A DNA stretch of 64,000 bases from a virus (taxonomy: Duplodnaviria; Caudoviricetes), in the IMG/VR virus record IMGVR_UViG_3300008259_003073, one strand, 5' to 3'. Shown here in pieces: positions 1,707 through 16,536 of the stretch. Position 1 is the stretch's first letter. Each line of letters opens with the position of its first letter. The position numbers and the translations under genes are program-made. The notes below the pieces were generated by a model that ran no database searches, was not told the DNA's origin, and was given only the letters and a program-made list of their open reading frames with translations.

Positions 1707-2186
1707 TTATTTTATGTGTTCTTCCTCTTTACAAACTTTTTCCAATTGTGATAAAATGTATTTTGGTTTTTCATTTAAAAATACATAACATCTCCATATT
1801 TTTTGTTTTTCAAAGTAAATATGTTTTTCCATATATGCAGGAATTGCAGCATTGGTTGGAATTCGTTTTACTGGATTATCAAAGTGAAGTGTGATTAAAA
1901 CTGTAAGATTTTCAGTATCATCCCATCTTCTTTCCTGTTCTTCCAACAATCTCCACTCACCACGATTTAGGTATTGGTCTTGAAGAATAGAATTTAAGTA
2001 AGAAAATGTTTGTTTTAGGTTTTCCATATTATCGGAGAATGATGCTGCAGGTGCACCATGTCCTTTATCGTAGATGTTTTTATAATAATCATCCGCATCC
2101 GATGTTTTGATGTTGGGTTCTTTGTAAAAATCCATTGAACCTCTGTTTACATTCGTCATCCTGTGCAAATGAAAGGAATGAAACAA
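1707..2186 (-). CDS. hypothetical protein (start uncertain)
   Basis: 159-aa ORF abutting next gene. Confidence 0.65.
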   Translation of the reverse strand: MFHSFHLHRMTNVNRGSMDFYKEPNIKTSDADDYYKNIYDKGHGAPAASFSDNMENLKQTFSYLNSILQDQYLNRGEWRLLEEQERRWDDTENLTVLITLHFDNPVKRIPTNAAIPAYMEKHIYFEKQKIWRCYVFLNEKPKYILSQLEKVCKEEEHIK

Positions 2187-2221
2187 TTAAGAAACTAATA
2201 AGGGTAATGGTTTTTTTCATA

Positions 2222-2532: not shown

Positions 2533-3942
2533 TTAGAGAATCATTCTCGAACCAATCAATATATTACTTAAAAAAGGTGAACCTGCGGCAGTATTACCAC
2601 TCAATTTGTAGTTAATACTGAAACCAAATCTTTTACTGATTTTATAATCAAAGGAACTTCCTAATAAAAATCCTATATTTCTATTTACCGTCGTAGTTTT
2701 ACTTACGGTATTGTACGCTATTGGTGATAACATAGTAAATACTTGAGGTGATATTGTTAATTTTTTACTATATTGATATGGTTTAGTCCAAAACCCAACT
2801 GCTGATGTTGATAAACTATATCCATACTTACCAGTTGCATCTTTAATTAAAAGGTTAATCACCCCCAAATTATAACCAAGCACTCCATATTTTTGAGTTG
2901 GTTTAATATGAGTATATCCTAATAAATTCATATAAGTCCCATTTAAATACGCAAATGCAGATGAATATGAATGTATAGTATTTAACTTGCCTTCTGAAAA
3001 ATCTAATTTAGTATACCCTCCACCTACAATAAATGTTTTCAAATCACTCATAACAACAGCAGTTGCAGAATAACTTTCATCACCTGCCATAGATGCTTTA
3101 GATATACCTACTGTAGCAGATTGTAACCATCTACCATCCGCAGATTCTATTGTAGATAAGTCAGATGCTAATAACATCGGATTGGAAGAAACTGCTTTTT
3201 CTTTTTTCTTCTCTTCTTTTTTCTCTTCTTTAGATTCTTCTTTCTTTTCCTCTGATTTTGATTCTTCTTTCTTTTCTTCAGATTTACTTTCCGATTTACT
3301 TTCTTCTTTTGATTCGGATTTGTTTTCAGAAGATTCGGATTTGCTTTCTGATTTTGTTTCAGATTTGGATTCACTCTTTTGTTCCGATGAAGATGATGAA
3401 CTACCACTCTTATTTTCGGAAGATGAAGATGAACTGCTCGATGAAGATGAACTGCTTCCACCACTATTCGATGATGCGGATGAACTACTTTGAGCAGGAG
3501 GTGGTGTACTACTTCCACTAGATGGTGCAGGTGGTGGTGTTGTAGGTGGTGGAGGTGGAACAACTACGGTAGATGCCGCAGATGAAGCAGCTGAACTTGC
3601 AGCTTGAGATGCTGCAGTACTTGCCGTTTGTGCCACTGCATTTGTAACTGTTTGTTGAACCACTGGAGTATTGATAACAGGACAAGTAAATGCTTCGTAT
3701 GTAGCTTTAGTTGTAAATAACCAAGTTTGAATTACTCCCATTTGTACTTCTAATGGTGTAAAAGTTCTTACTTGATTATAAAATGAAACAGTAGCATTAC
3801 CATTTATTATAGTAGTTGTAGCTAGTTTTGTTTCACCCGTACATCTATCTATAAATGTTTGGGTATAGGTTTGCCCTTCGGCTTTAAATGCCGTTATAAA
3901 TGTAACAATTAATAGTAAAATGGATACTACCCATTTTTTCAT
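2533..3942 (-). CDS. exported protein: N-terminal domain, Ser/Pro/Glu-Lys low-complexity linker, C-terminal putative outer-membrane beta-barrel
   Basis: Signal peptide followed by Q; long S/P/EK-rich linker; C-terminal amphipathic strands similar to 10975..11862. Confidence 0.75.
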   Translation of the reverse strand: MKKWVVSILLLIVTFITAFKAEGQTYTQTFIDRCTGETKLATTTIINGNATVSFYNQVRTFTPLEVQMGVIQTWLFTTKATYEAFTCPVINTPVVQQTVTNAVAQTASTAASQAASSAASSAASTVVVPPPPPTTPPPAPSSGSSTPPPAQSSSSASSNSGGSSSSSSSSSSSSSENKSGSSSSSSEQKSESKSETKSESKSESSENKSESKEESKSESKSEEKKEESKSEEKKEESKEEKKEEKKKEKAVSSNPMLLASDLSTIESADGRWLQSATVGISKASMAGDESYSATAVVMSDLKTFIVGGGYTKLDFSEGKLNTIHSYSSAFAYLNGTYMNLLGYTHIKPTQKYGVLGYNLGVINLLIKDATGKYGYSLSTSAVGFWTKPYQYSKKLTISPQVFTMLSPIAYNTVSKTTTVNRNIGFLLGSSFDYKISKRFGFSINYKLSGNTAAGSPFLSNILIGSRMIL

Positions 3943-4373
3943 TAGTTGTTTTGAATTCTACTTCGAGTGGGTTGATTATTTGTTGGAGTAGTTGTTCTTT
4001 GTTGAATTCTACTCGGTTGTAAATTTTGTTGATTAGGTCTAGTTTCTAATCGTGGTCTATTTGGGTATACATTATCAGTTGATGTTCTACTAGGTCTTTC
4101 TCCAATCGTAGTTTTTCTCTCATATCTTGTGGGTTGATGTGGTTGAACTCTGTTTGGGTAAACATAGTATGGAGGGATTGCTCTATATAAATATAAATTG
4201 CGATAGTTCCATCCCCAATCATTCCAACTCCAATAAGGATTATTACCCCAACCTAACCCAAATGTGTTAGTATTGCAATCACAATCTCTATAAACTACGC
4301 GTTGTTGTGTAGTACAAGATGTTAATAAAATTGTTGCAATTAAAATTAGTACAAATACAACTGCCTTTTTCAT
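3942..4373 (-). CDS. lipoprotein with disordered Arg/Gln/Thr-rich tail
   Basis: Lipobox ILLTS-C; W/Y/G-rich middle; low-complexity C-terminus. Confidence 0.7.
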   Translation of the reverse strand: MKKAVVFVLILIATILLTSCTTQQRVVYRDCDCNTNTFGLGWGNNPYWSWNDWGWNYRNLYLYRAIPPYYVYPNRVQPHQPTRYERKTTIGERPSRTSTDNVYPNRPRLETRPNQQNLQPSRIQQRTTTPTNNQPTRSRIQNN

Positions 4374-4393
4374 AGGTATATTATTTAGTTACC

Positions 4394-4401
4394 TATAAAT
4401 A
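4394..4401 (-). promoter_or_regulatory. putative phage late-type promoter motif (coding strand TATTTATA)
   Basis: Directly after terminator, about 20 nt upstream of start 4373; motif recurs upstream of other genes. Confidence 0.5.
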
Positions 4402-4402
4402 T

Positions 4403-4429
4403 AAAAAAAGGGAGTATTACCTCCCTTTT
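4403..4429 (-). terminator. intrinsic terminator of TBDT-lipoprotein operon
   Basis: Stem aaaagggag/ctccctttt, 6-nt loop, T-run on minus strand. Confidence 0.85.
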
Positions 4430-4433
4430 AATT

Positions 4434-5419
4434 TTAATTTCCTTTAGATGGGAATCTAGTCCATCCATTACTCCAAATAGGTTTATCTAATTCAGGTATT
4501 ACCACATCTATCTCCTTATTACTTTTTGAAAGTGCTAATGTTTTCAATTGTTCACTTGTCAAAATTGTAGTTGCCTTACTGATAAAGTTTAAGGTAGGAT
4601 TAAATGTTCCTACTGAATTGTTTTCAAATACTGAAACTCCATCTTTTACAAATCCAGCAGTTTCATTACTTTCCAAACTTAAACCACCTTTCATCCATCC
4701 CCATACAATACTATTCTTCATTGTGAATTGAGTTGCTCTCCTAAATCTCAAACCTAAATTGTGGTTTGCTAATGCAGTAGATACATTCGGTCCAATCAAA
4801 ATCATATTGTAAAGTTTTGGATGTGTATACGGTTGTGCAGGTGAACCCGTTCCATCGTTATCACATTCAACACCATTTCCGGCATCACCACTATCTACGA
4901 ATTGTGGGTCTCTTTTTGCCACACCATTTGTGATTGTTCCAGTGTATCCAAAATCAAAATCAAAATCATCATCTGCGGTTGCGAATGCGTATAGATTTCT
5001 TGCAGATACCGTTCCACCAAAGAATTCAAATGCATGGTTTTTGCTCTGCCCAATATAACGATGCCTCCCCAATCACCAGGTGCTCTTTCTCCAACTGCTT
5101 TACCTGATGTAAATACGATTGGTTTTGTTGCAGTTCCTTCTGCTACAATTTGTGCTCCTCTTTCAATTACCAATGCACCCTTCTCACTTATATCGGATAC
5201 GATTGTTGTACCAGGTTGAATAATTAGTTTTGCTCCATCGGTTACATATACATAACCTTTCAATGTCCAAACTTTATCCGCAGTTAAAGTTGTTGTTGTG
5301 TTGATGTTGCCAGTAAGTGTTGTTGAGGTTGGGATGTTGATTGGACCATCTCCTCCACCCAATTCTTTATCGCAACTCATTAATCCGAATGCTAAAATAG
5401 CTACTAATAGTTTTTTCAT
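4434..5419 (-). pseudogene. TBDT-associated beta-helix surface lipoprotein, split by internal deletion/frameshift near 5035
   Basis: 5' part (FGLMS-C...GDWGGIVILGRAKT) and 3' part (AFEFFGGTV...DDDFDFDFGY...DAGNGVECDND) are halves of one family in different frames. Confidence 0.75.
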
Positions 5420-7893
5420 AATGTTAAATTTAGTGTTAATGAAACTGTTTGTTCGTTGTTTGTTTTAATTAAATCTCTGTTTTGTAACTTTTGGTAAAAG
5501 ATTGATGGTTGAGCAAATACATCACCTATTGCCAATTTTAATTCTCCTTTTGGAAGTTTGTGTAAGAATGTAATATCTAATACATCTCTACTATTTTCAA
5601 AGATATCAGGATACCCCTGAAATCCTACTGCCGATATTCTATCTCCAACCCTATTATAGGTTATATTAAGGGTTTCATTCTTTTTGTGTATATTCACCCC
5701 ACCGTTTAACACATAGGTTGACTGTCCTTGTAATTGTCTTTTAACACCATTCACTTCAACTTCGGAATTCATTATCGATGTATTTGCGTATATATCAAAC
5801 CAACCATTTATCTTTTTTCTTGCTTCCAATTCAACACCATATAGGATAGCTGAATTTGGATTGGTGTAAGTTAGGAGGAGGTTGGATGGAACCGAACCAT
5901 CTGCTACAATTTGTTCTATTGGATTGATGAAGTTCTTACCAAATAGGGAAAGTGAAACATTCTCACCTGTATTCGGATACCATTCGTATTTTAAGTCAGC
6001 ATTGTATATATCAGTTTTCTCTAAATTAGAGTTACCCAATAGTTGTGCATTTCTAACAAAATCATAATACGCAAAATTAGCAACTTCTCTGAATTCTGGT
6101 CTTACTAATGTTTTACTTACCGAAAATCTATACTTTGTTTTTTCTTCGTTGTATGAAAGGTTTAAGGATGGTAATATATCCAAATACTCTCTATCTACAT
6201 TTACTTTCTGTCCACTAAAATCTGCAGTTGATACATCGAATAAATTATACTCACCTCTTAATCCTGTGTTTAATTTCCATTTACCGAATTCCGTATCATA
6301 CATTGTGTATAACGAACCCAAATCAAAATCAGCAGTATATCTATCAGTATTGTTTGTTATCTCATCTAACATATCAGTTGATAGGTTACGGAATACTCTA
6401 GCATTAAATCCTCGTATCTTTTTTAGGTAACCACCACCCACTTTAATCTTACCAAACTCTTTGTTGATATTACCATTCAAAGAGTTCTCATCCATCACAC
6501 TCCAAAAACGATATGTATCTCTCCACGCAGTTTGATATGGTTCATCTACCCCCAATGATTTTGTAATTGGATTAACTCTATAATCGGGTTGTTCTCTGAA
6601 AGTGTATGTATATCCTACATTGAAATCTAATGTTTTAACTTTACCATCTAATTGAGAACTGATTACAACATTGTTAATATGATTTGATGCAGTAGATAAA
6701 ACATTCTGCACATTATCAAAGTTATCACCAGTACGAGTTAGGTATGTATCATCGGTTTGGTAGTTCACTAATGTTTTCCAACTATATCTATTCTCACCCA
6801 AATAGGTCAAATTGAATAAACCATTTGTGGAAAACCTTTTTGTGAATAGAACATCTTTGTAATCATAAGCCAGTTCGGTTGATGATTGATAATCCTTTCT
6901 ATCAATGTTATTTATTGTAAATGAGTTCCTTACGGTAGAACTGAATAAGGAGTTCCATTTTCCGTTTACATACCCGAATGATACACCACCATTTAAGTTC
7001 TGAATAGATTGGATTGTTTCAGTTGATGGATTATCAAATAGTTTAGTGTAAGCTCTCTTATCACCATTACCACTAATTCGGTATTTGTATGTAGATGGGA
7101 ATGTGGAGGGGAAATCGGTAGCTTGAACTAACTTAAAATCTCTAAAAGTTGAAACCGAACCCCAACCACTTCCCGATGATATATTAAAAAAGTTATCAGA
7201 TACTTCTTTAGTTGTTATCTGAACCAATCCACCTGCCCAATCACCTGGTAGATTTGCCGATGCTGATTTAGCAACTATTATGTTATCAATTAGTGATGTG
7301 GGGATTATATCAAATGAGAATGCTCTCCTATCGGGTTCGGTTGATGGTAGTGGGGTTTTGTTTAGTAGTGCTGAATTATATCTATCTGCCAATCCTCTTA
7401 CTAATACAAACTTATCGTTTTGTATAGTTACACCACTTACTCTTTTAAGTGCATCACCCACATTTCTATCGGGTGTCTTTTTGATAAATTCTATGGATAA
7501 TCCATCTGATACAACATTACTATTTCGTATTGATTTAACAATAGTTATATCATTTACTTTTTGGGATATTGCCTGTACTGTAACCTCTGTTAATTCTGTA
7601 CTACTTTCTTCAAGTATTATATCAAAGGTTATGTCAGATGTTATATTTAATTCTTTTGTAAAATTCTGATACCCTATGTATGTTGCGGTTATGATGTATG
7701 TACCAGATTTTACATTTAATTTATACTCTGCATTTTCATTTGAGATAGTAGTGTATGTAGTTCCATCGGTGTGTTTGAAACTGATGTGGGAAAAATATAT
7801 ACTTTCCGTTTTGGATTTGGTTATACCACCTATGTTTATTTGTCCAATTGCTAAAGTTGGAATTAGTAGCAAAAATAAGAGAAACGATTTCAT
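5416..7893 (-). CDS. TonB-dependent outer-membrane transporter (carboxypeptidase-regulatory-like N domain, plug, barrel)
   Basis: Signal peptide; GTYIITATYIGY; plug DALKRVSGVTI...VRGLADRYN...FSFDIIP...IDNIIVAKS; barrel GLRGEY, PSLNL, RPEFRE, terminal LTLNLTL. Confidence 0.92.
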   Translation of the reverse strand: MKSFLLFLLLIPTLAIGQINIGGITKSKTESIYFSHISFKHTDGTTYTTISNENAEYKLNVKSGTYIITATYIGYQNFTKELNITSDITFDIILEESSTELTEVTVQAISQKVNDITIVKSIRNSNVVSDGLSIEFIKKTPDRNVGDALKRVSGVTIQNDKFVLVRGLADRYNSALLNKTPLPSTEPDRRAFSFDIIPTSLIDNIIVAKSASANLPGDWAGGLVQITTKEVSDNFFNISSGSGWGSVSTFRDFKLVQATDFPSTFPSTYKYRISGNGDKRAYTKLFDNPSTETIQSIQNLNGGVSFGYVNGKWNSLFSSTVRNSFTINNIDRKDYQSSTELAYDYKDVLFTKRFSTNGLFNLTYLGENRYSWKTLVNYQTDDTYLTRTGDNFDNVQNVLSTASNHINNVVISSQLDGKVKTLDFNVGYTYTFREQPDYRVNPITKSLGVDEPYQTAWRDTYRFWSVMDENSLNGNINKEFGKIKVGGGYLKKIRGFNARVFRNLSTDMLDEITNNTDRYTADFDLGSLYTMYDTEFGKWKLNTGLRGEYNLFDVSTADFSGQKVNVDREYLDILPSLNLSYNEEKTKYRFSVSKTLVRPEFREVANFAYYDFVRNAQLLGNSNLEKTDIYNADLKYEWYPNTGENVSLSLFGKNFINPIEQIVADGSVPSNLLLTYTNPNSAILYGVELEARKKINGWFDIYANTSIMNSEVEVNGVKRQLQGQSTYVLNGGVNIHKKNETLNITYNRVGDRISAVGFQGYPDIFENSRDVLDITFLHKLPKGELKLAIGDVFAQPSIFYQKLQNRDLIKTNNEQTVSLTLNLTL

Positions 7894-7939
7894 TAAGTTA
7901 TTTAAGTTAGTTCCTCAATAACTATGAACCCGTTTCTCT

Positions 7940-7973
7940 AAAGTGGTTAAGCAAATGTTAACAAATAATTAAA
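7940..7973 (-). promoter_or_regulatory. Pho-box-like triple direct repeat, 11-bp period
   Basis: Minus strand TTTAATTA-TTT-GTTAACAT-TTG-CTTAACCA, about 50 nt upstream of TBDT start. Confidence 0.6.
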
Positions 7974-8178
7974 TTACTATTCGTTTATCTATATTGTGTT
8001 TTTCGTAAAAGTTATTAAGTGTTTTAATTAAATCAATAATCATATCTTTTGCTTCCTTTTGTGATTTCACATCGGCTCTTGCAAAAGTTGTTTTGGGTAA
8101 AATGGTAGATATTACTTCCCTAGCAGCCCCACCTGTTACTGATACTACTTTTTCATCAATAGGTTTCTTCACTGACAT
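7969..8178 (-). CDS. hypothetical protein (69 aa)
   Basis: ORF track; tightly packed. Confidence 0.65.
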   Translation of the reverse strand: MSVKKPIDEKVVSVTGGAAREVISTILPKTTFARADVKSQKEAKDMIIDLIKTLNNFYEKHNIDKRIVI

Positions 8179-8185
8179 ATAAACA

Positions 8186-8905
8186 TTAATTTGGAAATAT
8201 ACCTTTCTTAATCATTCTATCCAAAATTCTAGCACAAGCAATATCCAATGCCTTTTTAGTTGCAATTGAAATAGTTGATTGGTTGAATTTTACTTCATCA
8301 ACAGTCGCATCAGATAATAGTGTTAATTCTCTCGTTGTAGTTGCCTCACCCAATCCAGATGCTCCAAATACTACACCAGTCTCTGCGTTTGTGAAACGAA
8401 CTTGCAAACCGATACGAGTAACCACCATATTCTTAACACCATCCTTTAAGTTTACGGTCTCATCTTCTGATATTGAATAATCGTAACATTCAATTGTCAC
8501 AAAGTATTCTGCTAAATTGATTTTACCAAACCCATCCAACTGGTTTTCAGAAATACCAGCTTGAGATGCTTGGAATTGTTTAACCATTCGGTTCTTAATT
8601 TCCGTTTTATCTTCGGTAAATTTGAAACGATTGAGGTTTTCCAAGTACTCCATTGAGATGTTTGCTACACCCAAACCTACTCTTTTCTCTTTGAGTTCTG
8701 GATATAGTTCATACATCTCATCACTAATACCTGCTTTTAGAATTTGAATTGGAATTTGACGACCTTCGTAATCTAAAAATTGAGAGATGTCAATGGCAGT
8801 TTCAAATGATGCTTTGTATTGTTCAGTCTTTGTAGTTCCTACGGTTTGAGCTACCACAACACTGCTTAACAAACAAAAACTTAATAATGCGAATAATTTT
8901 TTCAT
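8186..8905 (-). CDS. CsgG/HfaB-like exported protein
   Basis: Signal peptide + Q; GVANISMEYLENLNRFKFTED resembles CsgG 'ml..aL..tgrF.vvER' helix-strand; VRFTNAETGVVFGASG strand. Confidence 0.65.
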   Translation of the reverse strand: MKKLFALLSFCLLSSVVVAQTVGTTKTEQYKASFETAIDISQFLDYEGRQIPIQILKAGISDEMYELYPELKEKRVGLGVANISMEYLENLNRFKFTEDKTEIKNRMVKQFQASQAGISENQLDGFGKINLAEYFVTIECYDYSISEDETVNLKDGVKNMVVTRIGLQVRFTNAETGVVFGASGLGEATTTRELTLLSDATVDEVKFNQSTISIATKKALDIACARILDRMIKKGIFPN

Positions 8906-8920
8906 ACATATGTCTTTTCT

Positions 8921-8928
8921 TATAAATA
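8921..8928 (-). promoter_or_regulatory. putative phage late-type promoter motif (TATTTATA)
   Basis: Between terminator and start 8905, same layout as 4394. Confidence 0.5.
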
Positions 8929-8930
8929 TA

Positions 8931-8960
8931 AAAAAAGGGAGAAACTATAATTTCTCCCTT
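8931..8960 (-). terminator. intrinsic terminator
   Basis: Stem aagggagaaa/tttctccctt, 6-nt loop, T-run on minus strand. Confidence 0.85.
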
Positions 8961-9000
8961 AAAATATATCTGCCCTTCCTACAGTTAAAAGATATATTTG

Positions 9001-9246
9001 TTATCCTTCTTCTTCAGATTTTCCTTTTTTTCCGAAAATCTTACCAGCTTCGGCAATACCGAATGAACCCAATGTAATGATTACGAATGAATTGAAAATA
9101 GTATCACTAATTTCTAGTGTATTTCCCATAATACCAGTTACAATATCTGCACCAGCAAATATCGCCATAACTGCGAATGAACCGAATCCAACGATTGATT
9201 TTTCGTTGTAATCATTGTTGTCTTTGAAAATGTCTTTAAATGCCAT
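9001..9246 (-). CDS. small two-TM membrane protein (holin-like size)
   Basis: Two hydrophobic helices, charged C-terminus. Confidence 0.7.
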   Translation of the reverse strand: MAFKDIFKDNNDYNEKSIVGFGSFAVMAIFAGADIVTGIMGNTLEISDTIFNSFVIITLGSFGIAEAGKIFGKKGKSEEEG

Positions 9247-16530: not shown

Positions 16531-16536
16531 TGAATA

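Follow-up and report, generated by a model that had tools for sequence, protein, structure and literature searches.

A TonB-dependent transporter cassette behind a candidate Bacteroidota Pho box in a large phage genome

The stretch of DNA considered here (hereafter the window) comprises 64,000 nucleotides of the IMG/VR virus record IMGVR_UViG_3300008259_003073 (Duplodnaviria; Caudoviricetes). It is part of a large phage genome, has a G+C content of 32%, and carries all of its genes on the minus strand. Between positions 4,434 and 7,973 are found, in the order of transcription, three direct TTAA(T/C) repeats, a gene for a TonB-dependent transporter (TBDT) and the remains of a gene for a surface lipoprotein, followed by an intrinsic terminator (Table 1). 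A first-pass annotation of this DNA had proposed that the repeats are a Pho box, which would place a phage-borne outer-membrane uptake system under the control of the host phosphate-starvation regulator.

The transporter open reading frame (ORF) has the organization of the TBDT superfamily, with a plug in a C-terminal barrel. Its Pfam matches are CarbopepD_reg_2, Plug (E-value 1.8e-9) and OMP_b-brl_3 (E-value 5.6e-25), and it matches the TIGR01782 model with an E-value of 9e-53, under the cut-off of that model. A TonB-box candidate, TEVTVQA, can be read by eye at about residues 100–106, where the alignment positions are conserved with the consensus EVVVR. The AlphaFold2 (AF2) model of the protein has a mean predicted local distance difference test (pLDDT) score of 61.5, and its plug is poorly modelled. 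It matches FecA, BtuB and XusA with E-values of about 1e-14 (FyuA falling within 1e-14 to 1e-12), at 10–13% sequence identity. The structural neighbours are solved TBDTs of all kinds and point to neither iron nor B12 systems in particular. When compared with phage relatives, the gene displays ratios of nonsynonymous to synonymous substitution rates (dN/dS) of 0.08–0.23, which indicates that it is under selection in phages.

The start codon of the lipoprotein gene overlaps the TBDT stop codon by 4 nt (ATGA). The pair is not of the SusC/SusD type, the partner being a beta-helix protein without SusD Pfam match. In this respect it resembles XusA–XusB of Bacteroides thetaiotaomicron (PDB 9gbc), which also associates a TBDT with a non-SusD surface lipoprotein, but XusA–XusB is a siderophore system and the identity at the TBDT level is only about 12%. 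The AF2 model of the intact lipoprotein from the related phage locus L001 is a right-handed parallel beta-helix (pLDDT 83.5). Foldseek comparison of this model with the PDB gave weak generic beta-helix matches only, its neighbours in AlphaFold-DB are unnamed beta-helix lipoproteins, and a profile sequence search against the PDB retrieved no match. PF28492 (Beta_helix_4) is a precomputed annotation on L001 and on a second related locus, L002. Homologues of the lipoprotein occur in 100 of the 201 Bacteroidota genomes sampled.

The lipoprotein gene is broken in the window. When aligned to L001 and L002, both of which have an intact gene coding for 398 aa, the window turns out to lack 211 nt (about 70 codons and 1 nt), with a junction at about 5035/5034. 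This alignment also rules out a programmed frameshift or a homopolymer error at the A5 run of the gene. In all of the approximately 75 related phage loci with a readable downstream gene, the lipoprotein gene is intact (396–413 aa). Two independent assemblies, L140 and L141, whose TBDT matches that of the window at 100%, continue into the segment missing from the window, one of these contigs ending at the distal deletion junction. The deletion is thus either of recent origin or an error of assembly. Neither remnant has begun to decay, dN being far below dS, and the TBDT is the sole intact gene of the pair in this assembly. The unit ends, as had been annotated, with its own terminator, which follows the gene pair with the same sequence in L001 and with a different one in L002. 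The earlier description of a self-contained two-gene unit thus holds for the complete TBDT gene and the closing terminator; it does not hold for the lipoprotein gene, split by the deletion, nor for the upstream side, which lacks a terminator.

Table 1. Features of the cassette and of its surroundings in the window (positions are those of the window).
Feature	Position	Strand	Remarks
Candidate Pho box, three direct TTAA(T/C) units, 11-bp period	7946..7972	-	TAAY cores start at 7971, 7960 and 7949
Motif M2 (TAGTTATTG), -7-like box	7916..7924	-	position of the Bacteroidota -7 box (TAnnTTTG), deviating from the consensus
TBDT, 825 aa	5416-7893	-	signal peptide, CarboxypepD_reg-like N-terminal domain, plug, beta-barrel; complete ORF
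5' part of the beta-helix lipoprotein gene	5035..5419	-	lipobox MSC; ends at the deletion junction; ORF 4895-5419 continues past it in another frame until a stop codon
3' part of the lipoprotein gene	4434..5034	-	other frame (ORF 4434-5072)
Intrinsic terminator closing the cassette	4406..4429	-	9 pairs and T run
Nearest upstream terminator, then phage promoter-like TATATTTAT	8935..8960	-	start of a transcription unit that could extend into the cassette
69-aa ORF	7969-8178	-	no Pfam match; precedes the TBDT
Flanking exported proteins	2533-4373 and 7969-8905		143-aa lipoprotein, 469-aa Ser-rich protein with signal peptide, 239-aa secreted protein

Promoter elements in the window and in related phages

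The repeats were recovered at the coordinates first annotated, with an exact 11-bp spacing. Read on the minus strand, they are TTAAT (7972–7968), TTAAC (7961–7957) and TTAAC (7950–7946), separated by six bases each time, and unit 1 overlaps the TAA stop codon of ORF 7969–8178. Such a three-unit pattern occurs once in the 64 kb, both strands considered, for 0.04 occurrences expected from shuffled sequences (3 of 100 shuffles contained any match). Patterns of two TAAY units show no enrichment in the rest of the window, with 33 found versus 37 expected. Units 1 and 3 fit PyTTAAPyPy(T/A), as had been noticed, and unit 2 does not. This consensus is a cyanobacterial one (PMC10976474). The likeness to the SphR Pho box put forward initially is thus real for two of the three units, but it is a resemblance only: the phage relatives and the cellular homologues belong to Bacteroidota, and the promoters of that phylum are the relevant comparison.

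Between the array and the TBDT start codon lies the motif M2 (TAnTTATTG), which is kept upstream of nearly all phage TBDT copies and lines up with the -7 boxes in the promoters of Aquirufa. The TAAY cores of the window begin 47, 36 and 25 nt upstream of M2, which are the positions observed in the promoters of the Aquirufa phosphorus island described below. In 30 of 33 phage loci, precisely 47 nt separate the start of the first TAAY unit from M2, while the ATG follows M2 at a variable distance of 25–32 nt. When TAAY is counted by offset in 43 distinct phage upstream regions, 42 of them have it at -36, 32 at -47, 13 at -25 and 9 at -58. The other offsets score 0–6, save -44 (20), which overlaps the -47 unit. 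The repeats are, like M2, a conserved feature upstream of the gene in related phages. Phage copies down to 62% protein identity still have the unit at -36 and a spacing of exactly 47 nt, with a changed sequence between the motifs, which indicates selection on the element.

A generic Bacteroidota or phage promoter was considered and rejected, given the absence of enrichment of two-unit TAAY patterns elsewhere and the different layout of the other intergenic promoters of the phage, which consist of a terminator plus TATATTTAT. An arrangement with a terminator and, at once, TATATTTAT, TATATTTG or TATATTCG is indeed recurrent, at 8922–8930 and 4395–4403 and in the gaps at 16536, 29105, 53678, 50153 and 24685. 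These terminator-adjacent motifs are probably the ordinary Bacteroidota-type -7 promoters of the phage, distinct from the TBDT promoter. A Fur box or an extracytoplasmic function (ECF) sigma factor site (GGAAC), judged by eye, was also discarded: with GGAAC, the -10 element would fall within the start codon, and the surroundings of the gene in cells relate to phosphate and not to iron. A comparison of positions 4300–9100 with Rfam gave no riboswitch or other known RNA at E ≤ 0.1.

The TBDT/lipoprotein pair is present on at least 125 IMG/VR viral contigs, with relatives at 62–91% identity, and the public data contain more than 120 protein clusters at ≥80% identity. Two length classes of phage TBDTs can be distinguished. 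The longer, of about 825 aa, has the CarboxypepD_reg-like N-terminal domain, which the shorter, of about 750 aa, lacks; the lipoprotein partner is found in both (the loci set apart from the other phage loci in this comparison are L027, L034–L041, L048–L050, L057, L061 and L064–L075). The flanks of the pair vary from contig to contig, and conservation runs from just before the array to the terminator. The pair is a mobile cassette. In this phage lineage, whole TBDTs are thus not the unusual cargo that had been supposed, and they have been reported in other large phages, namely Mar_Mega_1 and LR745206 (PMC9723777) and the Lak phages (bioRxiv 10.64898/2026.10.24.761521). As far as the accessible portions of these two reports go, these are likewise full-length TBDTs from large Bacteroidota phages; they have 22 strands, were annotated as SusC-like or carbohydrate-related or were given no function, and are described there with neither a phosphate link nor a partner lipoprotein nor a regulatory element. 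The LR745206 protein shares 27.5% identity with the window TBDT.

Cellular relatives and the phosphorus island

The closest cellular homologues found belong to Aquirufa (Cytophagales), at 62–64% identity, and the next ones to Chitinophagaceae, at 36–41%. In every cellular locus with enough downstream sequence, the lipoprotein gene follows the TBDT gene. In a quick maximum-likelihood tree rooted with Chitinophagales sequences, the phage and Aquirufa TBDTs form one clade, apart from the Chitinophagales, with a support of 100 in the Shimodaira–Hasegawa-like approximate likelihood-ratio test (SH-aLRT). The phylogeny suggested in the first-pass annotation thus places the phage proteins with the Aquirufa TBDTs. 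Within this clade, the Aquirufa proteins are sister to one phage subclade (SH-aLRT 97). Two loci labelled as metagenome-assembled genomes of Rhizobium sp. (L104) and Asaia bogorensis (L106) have TBDTs that nest among Chitinophagaceae sequences; they are probably mis-binned Bacteroidota contigs.

The cellular members lie in phosphate-acquisition clusters. In A. antheringensis, the operon consists of the TBDT, the lipoprotein, a Metalloenzyme/Phosphodiest-type enzyme of the phosphatase superfamily and a PHO4 (PiT) transporter. The same 23 kb contain a second PHO4 gene with a Porin_O_P gene, and a Metallophos plus glycosyltransferase pair resembling the PlcP/Agt lipid-remodelling enzymes. A PhoA-like gene, phosphonate-type genes and a SusCD pair were also recognized in this region, by sequence inspection only. 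The homology of the phage cassette and its origin from such a phosphorus island leave hardly any room for doubt.

The array itself is found in these bacteria. The Aquirufa TBDT promoters have four TAAY units, 11 bp apart, the last one 25 nt before a perfect -7 box (TAnnTTTG), and those of Sediminibacterium display the same array one period closer to the -7 box. The pattern TAAY-N7-TAAY-N21-TAnnTTTG has four matches in the 2.5-Mb A. antheringensis genome, all of them in the 23-kb phosphorus island, and a reversed control pattern has none. These four sites precede the PlcP/Agt-like pair, the PiT–porin pair, the TBDT operon and a divergent small gene. The same array sites recur in A. esocilacus, and three of the four matches of the pattern in A. 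avitistagni cluster near the TBDT locus. In Aquirufa, the array is thus exclusively tied to phosphorus-acquisition operons. More broadly, in a comparison with bacterial TBDT upstream regions, of the kind that the first-pass annotation had recommended, strict arrays of at least three units are present in 14 of the 20 assessable regions, for 0 of 20 with the control pattern. A TAAY array of A. antheringensis (L139 9300–9731, G002:C2:171300–171731), with its -7 box, points away from the TBDT operon; it precedes a long leader and a 112-aa secreted protein without Pfam match. Within Sediminibacterium, the strongest array, with five TAAY units, was observed in Sediminibacterium goheungense (L146 8620–8701, G005:C1:1104619–1104666), where it stands next to a -7 box (TAATTTTG) and abuts the promoter of a phosphate porin (Porin_O_P) gene.

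The Pho box of E. coli takes the place of the -35 element. Pho boxes are made of direct repeats with a period of 10–11 bp, occupy a fixed promoter-adjacent position with the proximal unit in the -35/-33 place, and stand before the phosphate-regulon genes of the host lineage. The window array has the period, and its position is fixed accordingly, with an atypical phage -7 box; in the host lineage, the same array precedes the PHO4, Porin_O_P and PlcP/Agt-like genes and the TBDT operon. From these comparisons, the array is very probably a functional cis-element shared by the phages and these bacteria, and its reading as a candidate Pho box appears well supported.

Proposed regulation by host phosphate status and its alternatives

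A cellular counterpart of the pair has been studied in Flavobacterium johnsoniae. Fjoh_0545 (TBDT) and Fjoh_0546 (lipoprotein FII, of pectin-lyase fold) belong to the phoBR cluster "PUSIV" (Lidbury et al. 2020, PMC8115612), and both are induced under inorganic phosphate (Pi) depletion, with log2 fold changes of 8–10 (PMC8115612). Pi depletion also induces PlcP, a glycosyltransferase, phosphatases and other TBDTs in this bacterium (PMC8115612). No cis-element is mentioned in that study, and the term "Pho box" was not found in its text (PMC8115612). Fjoh_0545 and the window TBDT have Plug, CarbopepD_reg_2 and OMP_b-brl_3 in common, and Fjoh_0546 and the phage lipoprotein are both downstream lipoproteins with a pectin-lyase-like right-handed beta-helix. 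Genes for PiT, an OprP-type porin, a phosphatase and lipid remodelling also surround the cellular homologues of the window pair, as in the regulon of the Fjoh pair. The window pair differs from the latter in being phage-borne, without phoBR, phosphatase or PiT, and in its broken lipoprotein gene. A more distant parallel is ElpS (CC0170) of Caulobacter crescentus, a Pi-starvation surface lipoprotein encoded beside the gene of a TonB-dependent receptor (TBDR), CC0171 (Le Blastier et al. 2010, PMC2996285). ElpS stimulates phosphatase activity without being a phosphatase itself, its biochemical role being left unsolved, and the ElpS/TBDR pair co-occurs across many bacteria (PMC2996285). A putative link with the phage lipoprotein comes from the FI–FIII lipoproteins, which are reported to be 31–36% identical to ElpS (PMC8115612); unlike the phage protein, ElpS is alphaproteobacterial and is released by a type II secretion system.

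The cassette is most simply read as a phage "moron" derived from a Bacteroidota Pho operon, i.e. a TBDT with an ElpS/"FII"-type lipoprotein that has kept its host-type regulatory array and would be activated by a host PhoB-type regulator under phosphorus limitation; we consider this likely. The proposal made at the outset, of an uptake system under host phosphate control, is supported by three independent lines of comparison: the position of the cellular pair in phosphate-acquisition operons, the same phased array before the PiT, porin and PlcP/Agt-like genes and the TBDT in Aquirufa and Sediminibacterium, and the Pi induction of the Fjoh pair (PMC8115612). Taken together, the common -47/-36/-25 array, the operon context and this induction suggest that the phage probably switches on the importer in a phosphate-starved host. 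In such a host, the phosphorylated PhoB-type (OmpR-family) regulator would bind the TAAY direct repeats at -47, -36 and -25, with the proximal unit standing in for the -33 element, and would recruit RNA polymerase to the weak -7-like box. The TBDT would then be exported, inserted in the host outer membrane and energized by the host TonB–ExbBD complex. It might import a phosphorus-containing substrate, whose uptake would be completed by host periplasmic phosphatases and PiT, and the phosphorus gained could help to supply the replication of a genome of about 200–300 kb. That the substrate is organic phosphorus or nucleic-acid fragments, as first suggested, is speculation, and the odds that the phage draws a nutritional benefit from the cassette look about even.

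Several observations weigh against this reading. Some of them bear on the regulator. OmpR/PhoB-family regulators are present in the bacterial genomes compared, with 12–50 PhoB-like receiver proteins each, but the best PhoB-like matches are all under the TIGR02154 cut-off; in Aquirufa, the best candidate for a PhoB orthologue is G002:C1:90857–91522. The array of the S. goheungense porin gene and its -7 box have opposite orientations. Class II activators seldom show such an arrangement, which suggests either that orientation is irrelevant or that the array acts by repression. The controls are also imperfect: the PBP_like_2 genes found adjoin tonB-like genes and have no arrays, which makes them uninformative as a PstS positive control, and no pstSCAB promoter is among the controls. 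The array could be a genuine operator for a regulator other than PhoB, of the OmpR family or unrelated, dedicated to the island and perhaps responding to something else than Pi, for instance to a specific organophosphate, envelope stress or growth phase. The restriction of the Aquirufa array to one island, instead of a genome-wide regulon, would fit with this as well. What speaks for phosphate is the set of genes fronted by the array (PiT, OprP-type porin, PlcP/Agt-like enzymes, a phosphatase-superfamily enzyme, TBDT plus FII-type lipoprotein), which corresponds nearly gene for gene to the Pi-starvation genes identified by experiment in F. johnsoniae. Another regulator appears therefore rather unlikely, and a Pi-responsive PhoB remains the probable one.

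Other difficulties concern the phage promoter. M2 matches neither the host TAnnTTTG box nor the TATATTTAT-type promoters of the phage itself, which makes the polymerase or sigma factor using it uncertain. The proximal (-25) unit is kept in just 13 of the 43 phage promoters. In the window, no terminator lies between 8935 and the cassette, which is not insulated from the upstream genes; with the nearest minus-strand terminator at 8960–8935, read-through from the genes at 8186–8905 and 7969–8178 is possible. The phage array might accordingly be a relic, the cassette being mainly expressed by read-through or from a phage-controlled promoter, together with the neighbouring exported envelope proteins and independently of phosphate. 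This scenario, which we find improbable, is difficult to reconcile with the survival of the -36 unit and of the exact 47-nt spacing down to 62% protein identity, in a changed sequence context. Moreover, in many other phage contexts a terminator stands directly before the array, so that the cassette must carry its own promoter there.

The remaining reservations apply to the comparisons with known systems. The homology to Fjoh_0545/0546 is one of shared architecture and context, not of direct alignment. The genome contigs were scanned for cellular homologues with two peptide patterns only, and closer cellular relatives may therefore have been missed. Lastly, predicted phage Pho boxes are unreliable without electrophoretic mobility shift assays (PMC10976474).

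A different role can also be imagined for the same promoter. In a receptor swap, a phage TBDT driven by the Pho box would replace or mask a host Pi-starvation TBDT used for adsorption by this phage or its competitors, at the very time when the host displays it, the outcome being a conditional superinfection exclusion instead of nutrition. TBDTs are common phage receptors, and phage outer-membrane proteins have been proposed to remodel the receptor landscape (bioRxiv 10.64898/2026.10.24.761521). A swap would explain both the strong diversification of the phage copies (62–100% identity, two length classes) and the tolerated lipoprotein loss in the window variant, which has kept its TBDT. However, the lipoprotein is intact in about 75 relatives, with the 4-nt overlap of its gene with the TBDT gene, and purifying selection acts on the TBDT plug and barrel, as would be expected from a working importer pair. 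We regard a receptor swap as very improbable, and the reading as a phosphate-controlled importer is retained.

Marine cyanophages offer the textbook example of phage phosphorus-acquisition genes controlled by the Pho system of the host. There, pstS is under the host PhoBR, and the host PhoB binds the Pho-box promoters of phage S-PM2d (PMC10976474); the host control of pstS and phoA was also addressed in P-SSM2 work, as far as the citation in that paper conveys it. The window likewise seems to hold a host-derived phosphorus-acquisition gene behind a host-type Pho box. It differs by the host phylum, by the cargo, which is an outer-membrane TonB-dependent importer pair and not a periplasmic binding protein or a phosphatase, and by the candidate box, which is of the Bacteroidota promoter type (-33/-7). 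Nothing comparable was found described for Bacteroidota or freshwater in the literature searched, the coverage of which was not exhaustive, nor did it yield any publication dealing with a Pho box of Bacteroidota, with phages of Aquirufa or with a phage TBDT linked to phosphate. If the proposed reading is true, widespread large freshwater phages would tune an outer-membrane importer to the phosphorus status of their host, and virus-driven phosphorus uptake would take in another host phylum and another class of transporter. The TAAY/11-bp array would then provide a usable definition of the Bacteroidota Pho box, making the Pho regulon predictable from sequence. The phage cassette, with its promoter, TBDT, lipoprotein and terminator, would also be a minimal portable ElpS/FII-type system, convenient for substrate finding.

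Phage genome setting and neighbouring genes

The genes of the window include GroEL, a family A DNA polymerase, a ribonucleotide reductase and a DnaB-like helicase. Its weak DNA similarity points in the direction of Flavobacterium myophages, and its nearest related contigs are metagenomic, of 180–290 kb. The stretch was found in metagenomes of 13 studies. The TBDT gene is absent from the nearest record (G001), a genome that is only about 32% complete, which makes this absence uninformative. Among the two DNA-type and two RNA-library runs compared, the exact promoter and TBDT sequence is present in contigs of two freshwater metagenome runs. Relatives were also found in two estuary RNA libraries, as contigs only, which are not informative on phosphate.

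The cassette is surrounded by genes for exported proteins (Table 1), and the 143-, 469- and 239-aa proteins have no Pfam match above the curated cut-off. L001 has an additional 178-aa gene, located between the 239-aa gene and the small ORF preceding the TBDT. Further downstream, in the region 1707–2220 (minus strand), lies an Endonuclease_NS gene (Pfam E-value 4.6e-15), which starts with a TTG at 2186, a signal-peptide-like ATG being present in another frame at about 2220. Its L001 counterpart has 200 aa with the signal peptide in frame, and the window diverges from it soon after that peptide. Possibly, a second gene for a secreted protein is disrupted in this assembly. Finally, a short telomere-like run (CCCTAA-type, about 2.5 units) is present at about 346–365 on the minus strand, immediately ahead of the ATG of ORF 345 and downstream.

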